Translations under genes and position numbers: made by a program
The notes under the pieces: model-generated
Database searches by the model: none
The model's input: the letters and a program-made list of their open reading frames with translations, nothing else
What the model was told of the DNA's origin: nothing
In this document: piece after piece, positions 8,235 through 26,648 of the stretch
Position numbering within the stretch: position 1 is the first letter of the stretch
How the letters are laid out: the number at the start of each line of letters is the position of its first letter
DNA from: Cupriavidus necator
GTDB taxonomy: Bacteria > Pseudomonadota > Gammaproteobacteria > Burkholderiales > Burkholderiaceae
Direction of reading: 5' to 3'
Length of the DNA stretch: 32,000 bases
Assembly: GCF_016127575.1 (NCBI RefSeq)
Contig: NZ_CP066018.1
Location: 2,850,001 to 2,882,000, forward strand

Positions 8235-9104
8235 TCACCCGGCTCTTGCCGTGACCTGGGTGTCTTGTTCATTACGACACAGTGTCGCCGCAAACACGCT
8301 AGAAACACTGGAAAGGGCGGCGGCCAGAACGTCGAGAAACGCAATATACTTTCGAACGACTTCGGTATCCGGCCATACGATCGAGGTGGACGGATGTGCG
8401 ATCGAGTTTCTATCGTCCATTAGCGCTGTCAATTTTTGCTTCGCAAGCGATTCAGCATTTGTGGGATCTTGCGTCATAAAGTAGGCTTGAATCGAGGCCT
8501 GTTGTCCTAATTTCTTCCATATTTCCTTCGCGCCGATACGGTCATAAAGATCCGTAAGGGTGTCAGGCTTCATATTTGTTTCAGTAATCGAAAGGCACTG
8601 ATAATTGATATTATCGATCGTGGCTTCGGCTGATAGATTGGCTGCCAAGTTTTTGGTGAAAGAAGCAACTGCGCCGTCGCCATGTTGATACTTCCTTGGT
8701 GATTGCATCACGATCGCAGTGAACACGACTAAGCTATCCTGCATCTTCTTTGGCAACGCCCTAAATGATGATGCCCGCTGAGCCAATCGTTGGCAAAGGT
8801 CCTCAAACGAAGTACGTGTGTACTCTTCGAATCGTCCTGCAATGTAGAGGATCATCGTACCGCTAACGACAGGCAACCCCTGGTGTGAATTCCGGGTGCA
8901 TTGATGTAAGGTATTTGCTTGGCGGAGATACTTGCGGATTTCTGTGCTTGCACTCGACTTTCGCTCCCTGTCGATCGTTGATGATCGGACATATCTCTCC
9001 GATAACTCAGAGGTCGCCGAGAATTTCTTGATTTCGTCGAGTAAGTCCAATTGCCGGGAAATGGTCACAAGGTCTCGCTGAAACTCGGAAAGGATAAGGT
9101 CCAT
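8235..9104 (-). CDS. HEPN-domain protein (RiboL-PSP / MAE_28990-like), putative RNase effector
   Basis: The Rx4H motif DDRNSIAH is encoded at 8394-8411 near the C-terminus of a helical protein. ATG 9104 has GAGG 6 nt upstream and lies 7 nt after the DUF262 stop. GC is low. Confidence 0.7.
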   Translation of the reverse strand: MDLILSEFQRDLVTISRQLDLLDEIKKFSATSELSERYVRSSTIDRERKSSASTEIRKYLRQANTLHQCTRNSHQGLPVVSGTMILYIAGRFEEYTRTSFEDLCQRLAQRASSFRALPKKMQDSLVVFTAIVMQSPRKYQHGDGAVASFTKNLAANLSAEATIDNINYQCLSITETNMKPDTLTDLYDRIGAKEIWKKLGQQASIQAYFMTQDPTNAESLAKQKLTALMDDRNSIAHPSTSIVWPDTEVVRKYIAFLDVLAAALSSVSSVFAATLCRNEQDTQVTARAG

Positions 9105-9111
9105 GCGCGCC

Positions 9112-10323
9112 TCAGGCCGAAAGGATCGTTCTTGCAAGCGCCACGCGAGCCTTGATTGCTTCTACAGTGTTCCCGCGGCCCACGAGAATATCGTAATCCT
9201 CCTTTGTGCTGAGGGCTTTGGTAAGCCTGTCCTTTACAGTGAGAGGCTCTGCGAACTGCGGTGGCGGTGAGGAATCGGACAGGGTACTAGCTGCGACCAT
9301 AAGGGCGTCGTACAAGGGGCGACTGGGCCGCTTGGTCCCTGGAAGAACGATGAAATCGGGGCCAATCAGTCGGATGAGAGTGTTGATACTTGAGGTGAAT
9401 AGTGCCCCAAGTTTGTCGGCATCATCATTGGAAATATTCCTGTATTTCCTCATTGTCCGATCGAGGATGTGACGTAGCGAACCCTTTGTCTCTCCCGAGA
9501 TAGTCTCACGAATCGCAAAAAATCGTAAAACGAGTTCGCAATCCATCATCGATTGATAGAGAATATTCTTTGTGAGTTCGGGAGCGGGTTCTTTTTCCTC
9601 ATTTTCTGTTCTGCGAGGGATGCCCCATACATTGGCAAAGCTGTCTTCTCGAGACAGGCGCTTGATCATCGCATTGAAGGTGCCTGGAAATGCTGCATTT
9701 CTTAATTCTTGAGGATTTAATTTTACTCCTCCGGTATTAAGTCGTCTGAAGAGCACCATTCTAATATCAAAATCGCCATCGCCACGAGCAGTTTCTGCAA
9801 GTAATACCACGGCACCTATTGTGCGTCGTAGTAGTCCGCGTCTAACTGCCTCGGGGAGATCACGAAACCGCTTCGAGTTGATTTCTGGCCAATATTCCAG
9901 GCCGGTTAGCGCAAAATCATTGTCTAGAAAATCGGTGATTGTCTCTAGTCGCTGCCGGCCATCCATCACTTCGTATTGATTATAGTTTGCCTCGAACAGG
10001 AAGAGTGATGGGATGGGTACATTCAAAAGAATGGATTCAATTAGTAGCGACTTCTTTTTTCGGTCCCAGCGGGCACGCCGTTGATATCCGGGAGCCATGT
10101 TTATGTAGTTTGATTCGCGTAGGGATGCCTGGAGTTGATGCAGGGTGAAATCCATTGTGGAACGGACGACTCTCAGTTGAGTTTCCGCGTATTTCCTTTC
10201 AATGTCGTCCGAGGTACTTGACACTGAAACATCGGTTTGATCGTCCTCGGACTCATACCATTCGTCAACTTGGTCTTCGTTGATGTCGAGGGGCTGGTCC
10301 AATGAAGCTGATATGGCGGTCAT
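9112..10323 (-). CDS. DUF262 (ParB/Srx-like) domain protein
   Basis: Carries the YQRRARW...LIESILLNVPIPSLFLF...EVMDGRQRLETI signature; DGRQR is encoded at 9949-9963. The N-terminus is acidic. No DUF1524/HNH tail was seen. Start ATG 10323 (MTAISASL) was chosen; the 107 upstream codons of the track ORF look non-coding. One sampled line in this gene is 38% GC. Confidence 0.8.
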   Translation of the reverse strand: MTAISASLDQPLDINEDQVDEWYESEDDQTDVSVSSTSDDIERKYAETQLRVVRSTMDFTLHQLQASLRESNYINMAPGYQRRARWDRKKKSLLIESILLNVPIPSLFLFEANYNQYEVMDGRQRLETITDFLDNDFALTGLEYWPEINSKRFRDLPEAVRRGLLRRTIGAVVLLAETARGDGDFDIRMVLFRRLNTGGVKLNPQELRNAAFPGTFNAMIKRLSREDSFANVWGIPRRTENEEKEPAPELTKNILYQSMMDCELVLRFFAIRETISGETKGSLRHILDRTMRKYRNISNDDADKLGALFTSSINTLIRLIGPDFIVLPGTKRPSRPLYDALMVAASTLSDSSPPPQFAEPLTVKDRLTKALSTKEDYDILVGRGNTVEAIKARVALARTILSA

Positions 10324-10766
10324 AAATAACCCTTTGTTTTGGGAGTGGTGCGTGTTCAGCAGTCTATTACAAGAGTGCTGTGCATGGACAAGCCAGATCC
10401 TGCGGGGCGCAAGCAAATATTTGGCTCCGCCGCGATCCGTGATCGGTCCGGGCGAGCCGTATTGGGGCTGTTTAACCGTGGCTAGTAGCGCCGGGGGCTC
10501 CGAGGGGGCGGCCATATCTCGGCTCGATCCGTTGCGGCCAGCTACTACGACAATAGGCGGCCCAGGACCTGCACCGCCGATCTCCAGGTATTGGTCAACA
10601 GGCCATTGAATTGTTGGCTCACCTTGGCCGGCTGCCAACAGCACCGGTGAGCGATGGCCGGTCGCTCGCTGGTGCAGGCGCGGCTGGGGTGGCGCGGCTG
10701 GGGTGGCGTTTGCGAAAAGATGAGCACTGCCGATAGTCAGGCAAACGCCTGCCCATTAGCCAATAC

Positions 10767-11085
10767 TGGCAAACGGTTCGTCAGCTGCGAGTTGAGTTGC
10801 GTGCTCATCTTCGGGTAGGCGTCGAATAGGGCGTGGGAGCGCTGGGCCTTCAATTCGCACTCGGCGCGGATCTGCTTAATCGTCTTGAAGCCCCATCTCA
10901 TAGCCTTGCACGCAGCTGCAGGTCCAGACCATGGTGTTACTCCGCACGGCCCGTTCCTCTGCCTGCCTGCGGGCTTCGAGGGCGGCTTCAGCAGCTTGCC
11001 CAGCCCGCGGGATGTCTGCCACGATCTCGGCCCTTGCCGGGCGGGCTCCGGCCAAGTCGGCGGCCAGCAATGGTGCGCGCCGCAT
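10767..11085 (-). pseudogene. frameshifted paralog of the secreted small protein 24708..25052
   Basis: Hand alignment to 24711-25052 gives about 87% identity over a counted 60-nt stretch. The reading frame is split between two track ORFs, with a 2-nt deletion near 10891-10897. There is also a 21-nt deletion near 10936-10941. Confidence 0.7.
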
Positions 11086-11086
11086 G

Positions 11087-11260
11087 TCAGGCTCCCCCCG
11101 GCGTAGATAACGGCCCGGCGCATGTCCCACAGGCCGTAGAGATAGACTCTGATCTCGCCCGCGGCTGGGCCGTGATCAGCCCTTCCAGCCGCTCCAAGGT
11201 CTCGTAGAAGGGGTTCTCCAGGTCGAGCACGCAGGATAGGTCGCTATCCTGACTCGGATT
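11087..11260 (-). pseudogene. truncated and frameshifted paralog of small protein 25054..25263
   Basis: SQDSDLSCVLDLENPFYETLERLEGLI matches SQDSTLSCVLDLEDPFRMTLERLEGLI. A 1-nt deletion near 11160-11170 shifts the frame. There is no start codon at the equivalent position. Homology ends around 11250-11266. Confidence 0.6.
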
Positions 11261-11280
11261 GAATGAAAAATGGCTTCCGC

Positions 11281-11486
11281 CCAGCCGATTCGAGTCACGC
11301 GCGCACGATTGGTCACTTCGGAAAGGGTGGCATGTCCCAAGGAGGGGCACTGCGGCGGAAAATCGGGGGGAAGAGAGGAGGAATCTACGCCCTGTGTGGC
11401 GGCCCATTGACATGGGCACGCCACACAAGTAGATCAGACGGCCTAGAGGCCAGCCTATGTGACTGGAGCTACTCCTAGTCGGCTGG
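11281..11486 (+). ncRNA. candidate structured ncRNA upstream of the RT (retron msr/msd-like), speculative
   Basis: Terminal complementarity ccagccga (11281-88) / tcggctgg (11479-86), plus gagt (11292-95) / actc (11471-74). These enclose a 15-bp hairpin at 11393-11427 (tgtgtggcggcccat-tgac-atgggc-a-cgccacaca). No convincing ORF is present. Confidence 0.25.
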
Positions 11487-11519
11487 CATTTTGCTAGTAT
11501 ATACGAGGCGATAGGTCGC

Positions 11520-12512
11520 GTGCATCGATGGGTAGCCCAGAAGGTAATTGTGAATAAAAAGCCACTTGAGACGCTTTTCGAGGCTATGTACCACAGCAAG
11601 CGTTCGTTCGACGATTTCGCGCGTGGTCCAGTGGCCCAGAAGTACGTCCGCCACCGCTTCTGCAAGCAGGGCAAGACGAGGGAGGTTCTCAGTCCCGACG
11701 ACAAGCTGCGTGCCTACCACGAGTTCCTGAGGCTCTTCCTGCTCGACTTTCTACCGCAGAATGAGGAAGTGGTTTTCTCGTATCGAAAAGGCGTGAGCGC
11801 CTACGACGCGGTGAGCAGGCATGCGCAAAGCAAGTTTTTCTTCGTTTGCGACATTGCCGATTTCTTCCCCAGCCTCAAACGCCATCGCATCCGACAAACC
11901 ATTCTTTCTGGGAAAGACTCATCTCCCGTCGCCGATTTAGATCAGTGGTTGGAGCGTATCCTTGACCTGGTGAGCGTCGACGATTGCTTGCCCATGGGCT
12001 TTTCCACGTCGCCGACAATAAGCAATGCCGCGCTATTGCCGTTCGACAATGCGGTACAGTGGTATTGCGCCTCGAGGGGGTTGATCTACACGCGTTACTC
12101 CGACGACATGGTGGTATCCGCCAAGGAGTTCGCCTCGCTAGATGGCATCGAGGAAACACTCGGGGCATTCTTCGTCGAATACATGGACGGCGACCTGGCC
12201 CTGCATCCTGGAAAATCCAAGCTGCTTCGAACTGGCAGCAAGATCAGGCTCCTGGGGATGGTACTGTTGCCCAATGGGACCATTTCGGTGGACGCGAGTA
12301 TCAAATCTGAGATCGAGGTACTAATCCACTTCTATATCAAGGACAGGGCGAAATTTGCGGATCGCGCAGATGGAGATGCGCAGAAGGTCGAGGCACGGTT
12401 GGCTGGCCTTCTGAATTACGCGAACACCGTGGACCAATCCTATCTGCAGAAGCTGCGCAAGAAGTTCGGCGCGGCTGTGGTGGATCTATTCCTGCACCGC
12501 TCCTTTGGCTAG
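11520..12512 (+). CDS. reverse transcriptase, retron/Abi-like (about 320-330 aa)
   Basis: RT motifs occur in order: KQGKTREVLSP, SYRKGVSAYDAVSRHA, FVCDIADFFPSL, LPMGFSTSPTISNAAL, YTRYSDDMVV (YSDD at 12096-12107), HPGKSKLL, IRLLGMVLLPNG. The track start is GTG 11520. An alternative is GTG 11550, preceded by AGAAGG. Confidence 0.9.
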   Translation: MHRWVAQKVIVNKKPLETLFEAMYHSKRSFDDFARGPVAQKYVRHRFCKQGKTREVLSPDDKLRAYHEFLRLFLLDFLPQNEEVVFSYRKGVSAYDAVSRHAQSKFFFVCDIADFFPSLKRHRIRQTILSGKDSSPVADLDQWLERILDLVSVDDCLPMGFSTSPTISNAALLPFDNAVQWYCASRGLIYTRYSDDMVVSAKEFASLDGIEETLGAFFVEYMDGDLALHPGKSKLLRTGSKIRLLGMVLLPNGTISVDASIKSEIEVLIHFYIKDRAKFADRADGDAQKVEARLAGLLNYANTVDQSYLQKLRKKFGAAVVDLFLHRSFG

Positions 12513-12515
12513 GGT

Positions 12516-13844
12516 ATGCACTTCTCAGTCGAGCTGGCGGAAATCCGCCCAATAAAAGCGCTCAGCTTCGAGATCGATCTTGCGCGAAACCAACTGCTCT
12601 GCATTGTGGGTAAGAATGGCTCGGGGAAAACTACGCTAGCCAAGGCGATTCTCAACTTCACGTTGGCCGACACCTTTACCCGCACATCATCGGATGGCAT
12701 TTTTCATCATGGCAGCAAGATTTGCTACCGTTTTGGCGCCCAAGAATTCCTGTTCTGGTATGACGACAACCTGCGCATGCTCAACTGTAAGGCGCCTATT
12801 CCAGAAGCGTTGAAGGCGCAGATATCGGTTGAGCTGCCGATGCCCCATGGGCATCGGTTCAATTTCTTCCGAGCGCTTAGCGAGTCCGATCACGAGATCC
12901 GGCGGGCGACCATCTTGGGGGATTACCGAAAACCCGAGGAGCTCATAGAGTTCTTGTCGCGCATCTATGGCGAACGACGATTCGACGATCTGATCGAGGT
13001 ACGATTGCGTACAGGATCGTGCTGCTGCATCACCCTTCCGGGCGGCCGCTATCTGCGTGAGGATTATTTCAGCTCTGGCGAATACTTCCTTATTAATCTT
13101 TATCGCAGGGTACGTAAGGGCCAACGGCTCGTCGTAATCGACGAGATCGACATTTCACTGGACGCCGCAGCCCAGGCTCGCCTCACCGCGGAGCTTCGGA
13201 CACTCTGCACTGAATACCACGTGAATATCGTCTTCACGAGCCATTCTCTAGCAATGATGCAGACGCTGCAGAGCAACGAACTGCTTTATATGGAACGGAA
13301 CGCCGAAGGTGCAACGCTCGTACCGGTATCTTTCAGCTATGTGAAGAGCTTGATGTTCGGGTTCACAGGCCGTGACAGATATATTCTCACCGAGGATGAG
13401 GTGCTCAAGGAGTTTCTGTCGTTTGTAATCCGTCACTACTGCCCACCTACCTTTTATAGCTATTATTTAATTGAAGTTGGTGGGGCGGGTCAGGTCGTCG
13501 ATCTCATGGCGCGTAATGATCGCGATGGATTCCTTGGCCCGACGGAAGACGTTATTTCCATCCTGGACGGCGACCAAAAACACGCCAAGCACGCCCAAGG
13601 GCCGAAGACCTACTGCATGCCGCTAGAGAGTGTCGAGAAGGCCTTCTGGGAAGAACATCAATGCCCAGATTTCCAGCCGCGCATTTCGGCGGAGCAGCAA
13701 GGCCCCAAGGCCCTATACAAGTACGTAACTCGCAACAAGATTTTCTCGCAGGAAGAGATCTTCAAGCTCCTTTGCGATCGCCATCATGAGGTCATTCAGG
13801 AGTTTGCCAGCACCTTGCAAGCCTTTCTTTGCCGGCCCACATGA
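12516..13844 (+). CDS. ABC-type ATPase fused to a TOPRIM-like (OLD / DUF4435-like) domain
   Basis: Walker A GKNGSGKT (12609-12632), signature-like FSSGE, Walker B LVVIDEIDISLD, and H-loop FTSHS. The C-terminal half has YILTEDEV...IEVGGAGQVV...ILDGDQ, resembling the TOPRIM Glu / GG / DxD pattern. ATG lies 3 nt after the RT stop. Confidence 0.8.
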   Translation: MHFSVELAEIRPIKALSFEIDLARNQLLCIVGKNGSGKTTLAKAILNFTLADTFTRTSSDGIFHHGSKICYRFGAQEFLFWYDDNLRMLNCKAPIPEALKAQISVELPMPHGHRFNFFRALSESDHEIRRATILGDYRKPEELIEFLSRIYGERRFDDLIEVRLRTGSCCCITLPGGRYLREDYFSSGEYFLINLYRRVRKGQRLVVIDEIDISLDAAAQARLTAELRTLCTEYHVNIVFTSHSLAMMQTLQSNELLYMERNAEGATLVPVSFSYVKSLMFGFTGRDRYILTEDEVLKEFLSFVIRHYCPPTFYSYYLIEVGGAGQVVDLMARNDRDGFLGPTEDVISILDGDQKHAKHAQGPKTYCMPLESVEKAFWEEHQCPDFQPRISAEQQGPKALYKYVTRNKIFSQEEIFKLLCDRHHEVIQEFASTLQAFLCRPT

Positions 13845-14837: not shown

Positions 14838-15230
14838 ATGAAGACCGCCGACAAATCGAGAGTGGATTTCCGCGTGGCGTTCGCAAACATGGATAGATGC
14901 GCGCTTTTGTCGCCCGAAGAACTTGCCGAATTGCTTGGCAAGAGCCGAAACGCTATCTACCACATGCTTCGGCGAGACGAGGATTCATTTCCTCAACCGG
15001 TCCTTCGCCAGAACCGATGCATTCGCTGGCGTGCCGGTGATGTCCGAGATTGGATAGACAGCCTGTCGAGCGCGAAGCCGCGTGAGATAGAGACTGCAAG
15101 GAGGCGGGGTCGGCCTCGCCAGGGCGATTTGCAGAGGTCCCCTTCTGATAGCGCACCTCTTGCTAACGATCATTCGACGGCGCTCGGACAAGCGCGTGCA
15201 CGCAAACTTGTGCGTTTTACCTTGGGGTGA
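14838..15230 (+). CDS. AlpA/MerR-type HTH DNA-binding protein (excisionase/regulator-like)
   Basis: LLSPEELAELLGKSRNAIYHMLRRDEDSFPQPVLRQNRCIRWRAGDVRDWI fits the AlpA-family pattern. GAGGAA lies upstream of ATG 14838. An alternative start is ATG 14889. Confidence 0.7.
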   Translation: MKTADKSRVDFRVAFANMDRCALLSPEELAELLGKSRNAIYHMLRRDEDSFPQPVLRQNRCIRWRAGDVRDWIDSLSSAKPREIETARRRGRPRQGDLQRSPSDSAPLANDHSTALGQARARKLVRFTLG

Positions 15231-24707: not shown

Positions 24708-25052
24708 TTATTGGCAACGGTTGGTCAGCTGCGCGTTGAGCTGTGTGCTCATCTGCGGGTAGGCGTTGAATAGGGCCTGCGAGCGTTCGGTTCTGACCCC
24801 GCTCTCGGCTCGTATCTGCCTGACGGTCTTGAAGCTCCAGATATCCTGACCATTTACACAGGTGCACGTCCACACCAGGGTGTTGTCGATGGCCTCCTCG
24901 TTGGCCTTCCACACAGCCCGTTCCTCTACCTGCCGCTGGGCTTCAAGCGCTGCCTCGGCGGCTTGGCCAGCCCGCAGGATATCCGCCACAGTCTGGGCCC
25001 CTGCTGGGCAAGCTCCGGTCAGGGCAGCGGTAAGCAATAGCGCGCGCCGCAT
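24708..25052 (-). CDS. small secreted protein of unknown function (integrase-proximal island module)
   Basis: Signal peptide MRRALLLTAALTGACPAGAQ. This is the intact counterpart of pseudogene 10767-11085. Confidence 0.6.
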   Translation of the reverse strand: MRRALLLTAALTGACPAGAQTVADILRAGQAAEAALEAQRQVEERAVWKANEEAIDNTLVWTCTCVNGQDIWSFKTVRQIRAESGVRTERSQALFNAYPQMSTQLNAQLTNRCQ

Positions 25053-25053
25053 G

Positions 25054-25263
25054 TCAGGCTCCCCCGGCGTAGACGGCGGCCCGGCGCATGTCGTACAGGC
25101 CGAAAAGATATGCGCGGATCTCGCCCTCTGGCTCTGCCGCGATCAGGCCCTCCAGACGCTCCAGCGTCATACGGAACGGATCCTCCAAGTCCAGCACGCA
25201 AGACAAGGTGCTGTCCTGGGACAGGGCTCGCAAAGGGTGAATAGATTGAATGGTGTCAGCCAT
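25054..25263 (-). CDS. small protein of unknown function (integrase-proximal island module)
   Basis: 69-aa ORF. Its stop lies 1 nt before the next start (TGA-C-ATG). This is the intact counterpart of pseudogene 11087-11260. Confidence 0.55.
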   Translation of the reverse strand: MADTIQSIHPLRALSQDSTLSCVLDLEDPFRMTLERLEGLIAAEPEGEIRAYLFGLYDMRRAAVYAGGA

Positions 25264-25373: not shown

Positions 25374-26420
25374 CTAGCCGAGCTTTAATGCGAGATCCTT
25401 GGCTCGGGGGTGGTAGTAACGTCGAAGCATTTGAAGTGTCTTGTGGCCCGTGACCGCCGACAGTTCCAGGACGTTGTCCAAGCGTTCGGCTATTCGCGAC
25501 GTTCCCTCATGCCGGAGGTCGTGAAACCGAAAGTTCTCGATGCCAGCCCGTTCGCAGGCGCGCGTAAAGGCCTTTTTAACGGCGTCAGCAGATGTTGGAA
25601 ACACTCTGTCCGAGGCCGATGTCGCGAGCTCTGCCAGCGGGGCGAGGGTGCTCACAGCCTTGGTTGAAAGGGGGACATCCCTCGACTCACCATTTTTCGA
25701 GTCGTGCAAGCGTACAAAGCGATCTTCAAGGAATACGTCCGACCACCGCAGGCTTAGTAGCTCGCCGCGGCGCATGGCTGTTTCCAATGCGAGGATCGTC
25801 AACGGCAAGATGCTCGGGTTCCGCGAACCGCCTTTGTCATAGTGGCCACGCCCATTGCGTGGGCTGGCAGATAGTTCGGCAAACAGACGGGCCTCTTCTG
25901 CAGCCCCGAGCCTGCGGGTGCGACCGCGGCTTTCGCGGGGCCGCCTGATCGTCGAGACTGGGTTGATAGCCAGGTGTATGTCCCATTCCTTGTTGGCGAC
26001 ATTCAAGACATGGCTGATGAGGGTTAGCTCCCGATTTACTGTTGATCCGGAAACCGGGCGTCGCTCGCCGTCGCCCTTGAGGCGACGGTCTCGGTATGCC
26101 GCCAGGACCTTGCCAGTGAGGGCGGCAATCTTGTAGTGGGCAATAGGGTCAGAACGTAGCTTGCGAATTCGAAGGACTTCTTGCTCACCACCTTTCTTGT
26201 GGGGCGAGATCTCTTCGCTGTACCGGAGGAGAAGGTCTCCAAGAGTGTTCCGCTCAGCCTCCCGGCGGTCGACGAAGGACCCTCGATCCATTTCGACCTC
26301 CACCTGGCGAGCCCAGCTCTCAGCGTCAGCTTTTGTATCGAAGGTGCGCGCTTGGGGTGGGTAACCGCGCTTACGGATCGCGACGCGCCAATAGTCGCCT
26401 CGTTTCCAGATCGATGCCAT
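25374..26420 (-). CDS. int: tyrosine site-specific integrase
   Basis: ETAMRRGELLSL (Arg I), FRFHDLRHEGTS (HxxR), VTGHKT, and LRRYYH (catalytic Tyr). The N-terminal SAM-like arm is MASIWKRGDYWRV. It is the first gene inside the island next to the tRNA. Confidence 0.9.
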   Translation of the reverse strand: MASIWKRGDYWRVAIRKRGYPPQARTFDTKADAESWARQVEVEMDRGSFVDRREAERNTLGDLLLRYSEEISPHKKGGEQEVLRIRKLRSDPIAHYKIAALTGKVLAAYRDRRLKGDGERRPVSGSTVNRELTLISHVLNVANKEWDIHLAINPVSTIRRPRESRGRTRRLGAAEEARLFAELSASPRNGRGHYDKGGSRNPSILPLTILALETAMRRGELLSLRWSDVFLEDRFVRLHDSKNGESRDVPLSTKAVSTLAPLAELATSASDRVFPTSADAVKKAFTRACERAGIENFRFHDLRHEGTSRIAERLDNVLELSAVTGHKTLQMLRRYYHPRAKDLALKLG

Positions 26421-26516
26421 TCCTGCTCCAGACAAGTGATTGGTCGTGTCCGGGCCGATTGTCTGACTGCGCCACTTTTGCGCCAAAAGGGCATTCCGCG
26501 AGGTTTTGCGGCAATG

Positions 26517-26549
26517 AAAAAAGGCCCTCGACTTTCGTCTGAGGGCCTT
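26517..26549 (-). terminator. rho-independent terminator downstream of tRNA-Val, supplied by the island
   Basis: The minus strand reads GAAGGCCCTCAGACGAAAGTCGAGGGCCTTTTTTCA: a 7-bp GC stem plus T6. It lies about 25 nt past the tRNA 3' end, inside the att repeat boundary. Confidence 0.6.
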
Positions 26550-26571
26550 CTTCCATGCGGCTTCCCGCGAA

Positions 26572-26618
26572 TCTGGTGGGTGGTACAGGGATTGAACCTG
26601 TGACCCCTGCCGTGTGAA
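26572..26618 (-). repeat. island-proximal att repeat (within the functional tRNA-Val)
   Basis: The 47 nt tctggtgggtggtacagggattgaacctgtgacccctgccgtgtgaa pair with 7688-7733. Confidence 0.9.
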
Positions 26619-26648
26619 GGCAGTGCTCTACCGCTGAGCTAACCACCC
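26574..26648 (-). tRNA. tRNA-Val (anticodon CAC), 75 nt with encoded CCA
   Basis: The minus strand GGGTGGTTAGCTCAGCGGTAGAGCACTGCCTTCACACGGCAGGGGTCACAGGTTCAATCCCTGTACCACCCACCA folds as a cloverleaf by hand. The stems are acceptor GGGTGGT/ACCACCC, D GCTC/GAGC, anticodon CTGCC/GGCAG with loop TTCACAC, and T ACAGG/CCTGT with loop TTCAATC. Confidence 0.95.

Follow-up and report, generated by a model that had tools for sequence, protein, structure and literature searches.

Type I-B1 retrons, as defined by Mestre et al. 2020, combine a reverse transcriptase (RT) of clade 1, an RNA of family 'IB1' and an ATPase+TOPRIM effector of cluster 22_2 (PMC7736814); the effector carries EDxxL and DxD motifs, and the type is listed without an experimentally described member (PMC7736814, Table 1). 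A review of OLD nucleases places the I-B1 effectors in class 3B and describes them as uncharacterised (PMC10568477). A retron of the same RT clade, Retron-Eco7 (Ec78; type I-A), has a noncoding RNA (ncRNA) in which a1, a branching G, stem-loops SL1 and SL2, a linker, the msd hairpin, an opposing G and a2 follow one another (PMC12673091). The 32,000-nt stretch of Cupriavidus necator DNA analysed here (contig NZ_CP066018.1, positions 2,850,001 to 2,882,000; hereafter the window) contains a retron RT gene at 11550-12512 followed by an effector gene. Judged by the RT model, the effector model, the gene order and the EDxxL and DxD motifs, these genes are those of a type I-B1 retron. The original prediction had placed a candidate retron ncRNA at 11266-11549, immediately upstream of the RT and on its strand. 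The interval probably holds the ncRNA gene of this type I-B1 retron, which would comprise ncRNA, RT and OLD-like ATPase-Toprim effector, but the gene would be inverted, running leftward from about 11489 with a core at 11489-11384. The system belongs to a known but uncharacterised retron subtype and has an unusual divergent ncRNA layout that is common to a whole clade.

Comparisons covered 68 genome loci with RT relatives and five metagenomic or SRA-derived loci whose RTs are 74-87% identical. Alignment of the upstream regions reveals a sharply bounded conserved block at 11384-11490 and two short boxes nearer the RT, and nothing leftward of the block aligns. Sequence conservation is limited to 11384-11524, which corresponds to the core and its promoter, and in each of three independent subgroups, one of which contains a relative whose RT is 87% identical, it ends exactly at the 3' base of a long hairpin, P4. 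The conserved core is 106 nt long, from 11489 to 11384 on the minus strand, and in that direction contains an AUG, the 5' strand of a stem (P1), a short hairpin (P2), a 5-nt linker, the 3' strand of P1, a conserved linker and P4. The original prediction was thus right that a cognate structured ncRNA lies upstream of the RT, and wrong or unsupported as to its strand, its extent and its a1/a2 repeats. With respect to extent, the left 115 nt of 11266-11549 form a lineage-specific C-rich tail, and nothing in 11267-11383 is conserved.

The P1 stem is formed by GCCAGCC (11481-11487, minus strand) and GGCUGGC (11449-11455, minus strand). All seven of its pairs show compensatory changes among 54 sequences, 97% of cells are paired, and at least 12 variants of the helix occur. 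P2, GACUAGGAG-UAG-CUCCAGUC at 11461-11480 on the minus strand, is an msr-like, near-invariant hairpin with one bulged A, which is present in all related loci and paired in 100% of cells. Its minus-strand motif is GACYAGGAG...CUCCRGUC, and one pair varies among U-A, C-G and U-G, the last of which corresponds to a C-A mismatch on the plus strand. The single-stranded linker that follows P1, CUCUAGGCCGUCUGA (11434-11448, minus strand), contains C(U/A/C)CUA, near-invariant family-wide, and CGUCUG, invariant in the clade of inverted loci to which the window belongs (the window clade). In one Delftia locus (L007; 2883-2912, minus strand), an additional ~11 nt follow P2 before the P1 3' strand begins, and the RNA is otherwise intact; the added segment includes AGUCACUGAC, which is similar to the P2/P1 junction.

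P4 occupies 11384-11433 on the minus strand and is msd-like, with a conserved base and a variable tip. In the window it consists of a 5-bp base (UCUAC/GUAGA), a 3-nt bulge, 10+6 bp and a 4-nt GUCA loop, and includes one pair, U11428-G11392, that is a wobble on the minus strand only. Compensatory changes are found in 15 of its 15 modelled pairs, and the tip differs in both sequence and length between loci. In 47 of 48 loci the parse recovered a long hairpin, 14-36 bp in length; at the remaining one, L027, it took another, 8-bp hairpin. The 15-bp hairpin with one bulge reported earlier at 11393-11427, and proposed as part of the msDNA (multicopy single-stranded DNA) template, is indeed present, with 9-bp exact arms (11393-11401/11419-11427), six further pairs and one bulge. 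It extends to the 50-nt hairpin at 11384-11433 and, lying within P4, keeps its msd-like interpretation. The near-invariance of P2 suggests a recognition element, and the conserved base and variable tip of P4 suggest a template. P1 and P2 would accordingly be msr-like and P4 msd-like, because P2 is invariant, because the tip of P4 is variable, and because of compact loci such as L026, where ~25 nt separate P4 from the RT start and P4 is the sole long hairpin that fits.

Several lines of evidence support this structure. First, folding, a check proposed with the original prediction, gives a modest result for plus-strand 11266-11549 (z = -3.0) and a far better one for the minus-strand core 11489-11384, which folds into the family structure with z = -6.0 and with 0 of 200 shuffles as good. 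Second, covariation across homologous loci, another such check, does reveal a conserved structure: the P1/P2 plus P4 architecture is 96.8% paired, and among 54 model-aligned sequences compensatory changes occur in 25 of 30 pairs, among them every pair of P1 and every modelled pair of P4. Third, when 23 sequences are aligned with plain MAFFT, 97.1% of the cells in the core structure pair, versus 37-41% for slid controls, and double-sided changes occur in 10 pairs, a number equalled in 0 of 500 shuffles. The MAFFT result is the cleaner control, since the 54-sequence alignment was fitted to the structure. Fourth, a covariance model derived from the minus-strand sequences of the window clade finds one full-length match in each of 54 of the 55 I-B1 loci, with no match at I-B1 locus L039 and none at any of 17 outgroup RT loci. 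A search of both strands of 10500-12500 against Rfam returned no relevant match at E up to 10, and a metagenome scan for the exact P1+P2 sequence of the window returned 0 matches.

The orientation of the element differs between lineages. Of the 54 model matches, 23 lie on the strand opposite to the RT and 31 upstream of the RT on the RT strand (canonical orientation; E 4e-12 to 3e-3); in the RT tree, the 23 inverted loci (the window and 22 relatives, from genomes and metagenomes) form one clade nested within the canonical ones. The P2 motif, too, is on the strand opposite to the RT in no loci other than the window and its nearer relatives, and at 25 more distant I-B1 loci it reads in the RT direction, upstream of the RT. 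The same motif occurs at 23 IMG/VR loci, 18 of which have an RT beside it, 16 in canonical and 2 in divergent arrangement; the divergent loci, L079 and L085, have full-length model matches and RTs ~59% identical to that of the window. The 20-nt P2 pattern is also present without a nearby RT in five IMG/VR viral contigs (L077, L081, L087, L091 and L094), four of which have no covariance-model match, and the fifth, L094, matches the P1/P2 half only (E 3e-4). Such matches may have arisen by chance or represent orphan fragments.

Base-pairing asymmetry points to the minus strand. In the minus-strand reading, paired positions contain 32 G-U cells versus 5 A-C cells, three positions pair on that strand only, and folding favours the sense over the antisense strand in 21 of 23 loci. 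It is hardly credible that the block is a DNA-level site (an operator, a recombination site or an invertible promoter segment) or a coding remnant and not an RNA gene. Such a site would fit a module that was clearly inverted once in evolution and that has palindromic sequence within the block; however, compensatory changes in 25 of 30 pairs together with strand-biased G-U wobbles are an RNA signature, orientation is fixed within clades and not variable between close relatives, no inverted repeats flank the promoter-plus-core unit, and the small open reading frames (ORFs) belong to no protein family.

A promoter for the leftward RNA is predicted in the gap between core and RT. The -10 box TATACT (11501-11496, minus strand) is conserved in position across loci, and 17 nt upstream of it lies a -35-like box, TGCACG (11524-11519, minus strand; 3/6 match), whose equivalent in relatives is TTGACA or TGGACA. 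In 39 of 44 loci, from both orientation groups, the invariant GAC is preceded by a -10-like hexamer that ends 14-16 nt ahead of it, and promoter scores are mostly 8-11 of 12 versus a shuffled mode of 6-7. The predicted transcription start is the A of the conserved AUG at 11489 (minus strand), based on the spacing from the -10 box and on the conserved YAUG. About 25 nt remain between the -35 box of the ncRNA and the RT start codon, and inspection by eye of the 60-nt gap at 11490-11549 for an RT promoter found nothing convincing on the plus strand. From these sequence features, the ncRNA appears to be encoded on the minus strand, divergently from the RT, and the cassette appears to have been inverted together with its own promoter in the window clade. 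The literature search turned up no paper that describes inverted retron ncRNAs, and the inversion may already be implicit in the tables of Mestre et al.

The original prediction included terminal complementarity, with an a1 repeat at 11281-88 and an a2 repeat at 11479-86. The 8-bp inverted repeat exists as described, CCAGCCGA at 11281-88 being the exact complement of TCGGCTGG at 11479-86. Its outer extension is AAAATG/CATTTT, across an 8-nt bulge. Viewed on the minus strand, the proposed a1 arm is UCGGCUGG (11281-11288), an exact 8-bp distal complement of the P1 5' strand plus GA, and its status is uncertain. As a long-range repeat it is marginal, with p ~0.05 by ungapped helix and ~0.03 by duplex energy. 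L069, the closest relative, has a similar sequence, AGUCGGCU, equally far from the core; in L070-L074 it is weak or absent. The function assigned to the repeat did not survive comparison, as the proposed a2 arm sits in a local covarying stem (11481-87/11449-55). Conservation of the pairing, which had been set beforehand as the test that could refute it, was not found, and 11281-88 has no counterpart in the family.

Tests for any distal partner of the P1 5' strand were likewise null. Duplex p-values are uniform over 40 loci (200 nt with shuffles; Fisher 0.33, Kolmogorov-Smirnov (KS) 0.74), the rank of self versus non-self partners has a median of 0.45 over 44 loci, and duplex energy within 130 nt is null as well. 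The best ungapped helix compared with shuffles and a test limited to close relatives are null at the family level too. No pairing enrichment is found when every 12-nt window of the core is compared with the 150-nt tail; these a1/a2 tests could miss short or lineage-specific a2 segments. A canonical plus-strand msr-msd, co-transcribed with the RT and having a1 at 11281-88, a2 at 11479-86 and the msd hairpin between them, is for these and other reasons very unlikely. It would account for the exact 8-bp repeat with its outer 6-bp extension (p 0.03-0.05) and for the similar complement at the same distance in L069, and an upstream ncRNA on the RT strand is the retron rule (PMC7736814). Set against this, the reverse complement of the element reads in the RT direction at 31 other I-B1 genome loci, the conserved promoter points the other way, the G-U to A-C ratio of 32 to 5 and three strand-specific positions favour the minus strand, the proposed a2 has a covarying local partner while family-wide tests for a distal one are null, and 11267-11383 is unconserved even at 87% RT identity.

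Other candidate closing helices were tried and rejected. RNAfold suggested, in a dozen loci, an outer helix that joins the segment 3' of CCUCUA to the sequence beyond P4; its self versus non-self median was 0.67. For an a2 in the CU-rich tail (CUCCUAGUC-like motif) that would pair with the 5' strand of P2, which is invariant, 0 of 48 loci reached p<=0.05. CCUCUA as a1 with UAGAGG after P4 and opposed Gs is found in part of the window clade and in the minimum free energy fold of the window, and is absent from every locus of canonical orientation. This fold has a retron-like look, in which the linker UCUA-G-GCC pairs with a 3' GGC-G-UAGA and G11443 faces G11389; this pairing is absent from the canonical-orientation group, in which it is not possible. 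A scheme in which P1 is the a1:a2 stem and P2 a tiny msd was also rejected, because P2 is invariant and recognition-like, the tip of P4 is variable and there is no conserved opposing G. An invariant G, 11480, does follow the P1 5' strand, where it takes part in the first pair of P2, and there is no defined a2. A clear a1/a2-like pair is seen at a single locus, L033 (2813-2994), a canonical locus in a Granulosicoccaceae metagenome-assembled genome, where a 14-nt inverted repeat, AGGCUUAUGCUAGC/GUUAGUAUAAGCCU, links the 5' end of the RNA with the first RT codons; this repeat begins before the point at which transcription is predicted to start.

If the interval is an inverted I-B1 ncRNA gene, a plausible mechanism can be proposed. 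A sigma-70-type promoter in the 60-nt gap before the RT start would drive the leftward ncRNA, in which P1 and P2 would form an msr-like platform for RT recognition and P4 would serve as an msd-like template. By analogy with Retron-Eco1, Eco7 and Eco8, the RT, produced from a separate transcript, would bind P1/P2 in trans and copy P4 into a small hairpin DNA corresponding to about 1139x-11438 of the plus strand, and the ATPase-Toprim nuclease would be held inactive by the resulting RT-RNA-DNA complex until a phage infection perturbs that complex. Such an antitoxin-like role is suggested by work on Eco7 (PMC12673091) and by the OLD review (PMC10568477).

Two variations on this scheme concern how, or whether, the RNA is copied. 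One, which is unlikely, is that the minus-strand RNA is a structural or regulatory RNA (a scaffold or an antitoxin for the RT and effector), or is copied by priming without a1/a2, so that no classical branched product is made. The lack of a terminal inverted repeat or of core-to-tail complementarity in 39-40 loci would fit such a role, as would the fact that conservation in three independent subgroups ends exactly where P4 does, the failure of the I-B1 model to recognise the Ec86 ncRNA and a literature in which no I-B1 retron with demonstrated msDNA was found. However, the RT keeps its YxDD motif and is closest to RTs of msDNA-making retrons, an invariant hairpin followed by a long hairpin with a variable tip has the appearance of an msr-msd, and a short or lineage-specific a2 would escape the tests. 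The other, a tentative and rather unlikely possibility, is that the I-B1 ncRNA lacks an a1/a2 duplex and that the P1/P2 platform and the linker position the RT on a terminal msd hairpin, with priming unlike the textbook branching-G geometry; the clade could then have flipped its ncRNA because the RNA has its own promoter and acts in trans. Either the a1/a2 repeats are short and idiosyncratic or priming is organised differently.

Several observations weigh against an inverted I-B1 ncRNA gene. First, the a1/a2 duplex (about 7 bp or more) with its branching G, a defining feature of retrons, went undetected in family tests of 39-44 loci, and production of branched msDNA therefore remains an assumption. 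Second, the promoter of the window itself is weak, matching 3/6 at -35, and a strict promoter and terminator scan of the window gave no hits; what supports the promoter is its conserved position across the family. No RT promoter and no ncRNA terminator were identified. Third, G-T wobbles are tolerated in single-stranded DNA too, and the G-U excess in P4 alone would not fix the RNA strand; the strand is fixed because of the G-U excess in P1/P2 and the promoter. Fourth, no transcript or msDNA data were found in the literature for any I-B1 retron.

Comparison with described retrons reveals both likenesses and differences. With type I-B1 retrons the window system shares the RT and effector models, a downstream effector with EDxxL/DxD Toprim motifs and a structured ncRNA next to the RT, an RNA that occurs at 54 related loci; the window clade differs in that ncRNA and promoter are inverted, so that RNA and RT are divergent. 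The RT of Retron-Eco7 is homologous to the window RT, and the ncRNA of Eco7, with short msr stem-loops, a linker and an msd hairpin of ~60 nt, follows a logic similar to that of I-B1. Eco7 also has an ABC-type ATPase effector, which is restrained by RT-msDNA (PMC12673091). The a1:a2 stem of Eco7 is well defined and ends in a branching G and an opposing G, with the stem-loops between the branching G and the msd; in I-B1 no a1:a2 could be detected, and P1, the one stem at the 5' end, closes locally around P2. The Eco7 effector consists of PtuA and the HNH nuclease PtuB, whereas that of the window has a fused Toprim domain. Retron-Eco8 (type I-B2) shares the three-part arrangement of ncRNA, RT and OLD-type ATPase-Toprim nuclease, but it belongs to another RT clade and its effector lies upstream in the gene order (PMC10568477); the window effector, at 442 aa, is shorter.

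The Retron-Eco1 (Ec86) ncRNA, like that of I-B1, begins with AUGC and has a long msd hairpin with a YUAC...GUAR base helix. In the window clade, UCUGAUCUACU (linker and P4 base, 11433-11443), just 5' of the hairpin, resembles the 3' end of the Ec86 msr, UCUGAGUUACU (L100:1570-1582), at which Ec86 msDNA synthesis ends; this is a comparison by eye and a lead only. The two occupy the same place relative to the long hairpin, and the more distant I-B1 loci lack an UCUGAUCUACU-like resemblance. The Ec86 ncRNA sequence used for comparison was confirmed by a 100% match in 48 E. coli genomes. It carries a 12-bp a1/a2, lies on the RT strand and has no detectable homology to the I-B1 covariance model R1 (1.1 bits, E 6.9). 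Because the model does not recognise it, the I-B1 RNA is, by this test, a family of its own with respect to Ec86.

Type I-B1 has no experimentally characterised member, solved structure or demonstrated msDNA, and a covariation-backed map of its ncRNA that gives strand, start, helices and the end of conservation would enable expression, testing and engineering. Pipelines that search the RT strand only, or that accept only a1/a2 repeats exceeding 8 bp (a rule described in a retron census preprint), would mis-annotate the whole clade, and could pick the same chance repeat as the original prediction. The stable divergent layout across a clade constitutes natural evidence that RT and ncRNA can act in trans from separate promoters, and the undetectable a1/a2 raises the testable question of how priming is set up.

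The gene assignments are as follows. The retron RT (11550-12512, plus strand) has a GTG start at 11550 preceded by GAAGG, a YSDD active site and a Pfam RVT_1 match. The PADLOC model RT_I-B matches over its full length (E 9e-119), with other retron RT models ranking next, and all 15 of its 15 PDB sequence matches are retron RTs, including the Ec78 RT at E 1e-13. The YxDD catalytic motif is conserved, with Y183, D185 and D186 invariant. The supposition in the original prediction that the RT might be retron-like is thus borne out by the RT_I-B match and by nearest solved structures that are all retron RTs. The effector, an OLD-like ABC-ATPase and Toprim protein of class 3B (12516-13844, plus strand), lies downstream and starts 4 nt past the RT stop codon. 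The PADLOC model ATPase-Toprim_I-B (E 7.6e-186) spans residues 1-439 of its 442 aa, a second PADLOC ATPase-Toprim_I-B model matches weakly (1.2e-6), and the translation contains a Walker A motif, GKNGSGKT, as well as EDEVL and DGD. Searches of the effector against PDB sequences matched generic ABC ATPases and PtuA only, with no OLD or Eco8 effector chain and no close solved relative.

One source of confusion in literature searches on I-B1 may be the label of Retron-Sen2 (St85). A 2021 FEMS review labels it type I-B1 and describes its effector, RcaT, as having a nucleoside deoxyribosyltransferase-like domain (PMC8632793); in Table 1 of Mestre 2020, the type with a deoxyribosyltransferase-like domain is II-A1 and I-B1 is ATPase+TOPRIM (PMC7736814).

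Downstream of the core, on the minus strand, 11314-11383 is a C-rich, G-poor tail with 31 C versus 12 G in the window. On the plus strand, it is the purine tract that the original prediction reported at 11341-11385, which is present and 80% purine. In 42 of 43 loci the 70 nt that directly follow the core contain more C than G (means of 0.33-0.34 for C and 0.14-0.22 for G); the excess is gone by 150 nt, and C and G are about equal at 150-220 nt. The tail has no sequence conservation, even at 87% RT identity. Hypothetically, the template could begin in this tail, and the DNA would then have a purine-rich 5' tail, or the region could serve in Rho loading and termination.

Upstream of the RT, the absence of a credible ORF noted earlier is confirmed, as the 71-, 57- and 82-aa ORFs there have no Pfam match above noise; all overlie covarying RNA structure. 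The earlier observation that homology with a second copy of an island module stops near 11255-11266 also holds (second copy at 24817-25260, ~79% identity). The duplicated module occupies 10873-11255 and 24817-25260; its minus-strand ORF is intact in the second copy (114 aa, no Pfam match) and seems frameshifted in the copy beside the retron. To the left of the retron, two adjacent minus-strand genes at 8235-10644 resemble another defence system: a DUF262/GmrSD_N protein matching PADLOC NsnA (1.5e-60) and a RiboL-PSP HEPN protein. The DUF262/HEPN pair flanks the retron in every contig with an identical RT, and these contigs, all sharing the same island context, are uninformative for the edge of the cassette. 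A tyrosine integrase (Phage_integrase, 3.9e-25) adjoins tRNA-Val (26574-26648) within 25374-26648, a region that is probably the integration end of the island, and an AlpA/HTH_17 regulator is located at 14838-15230.

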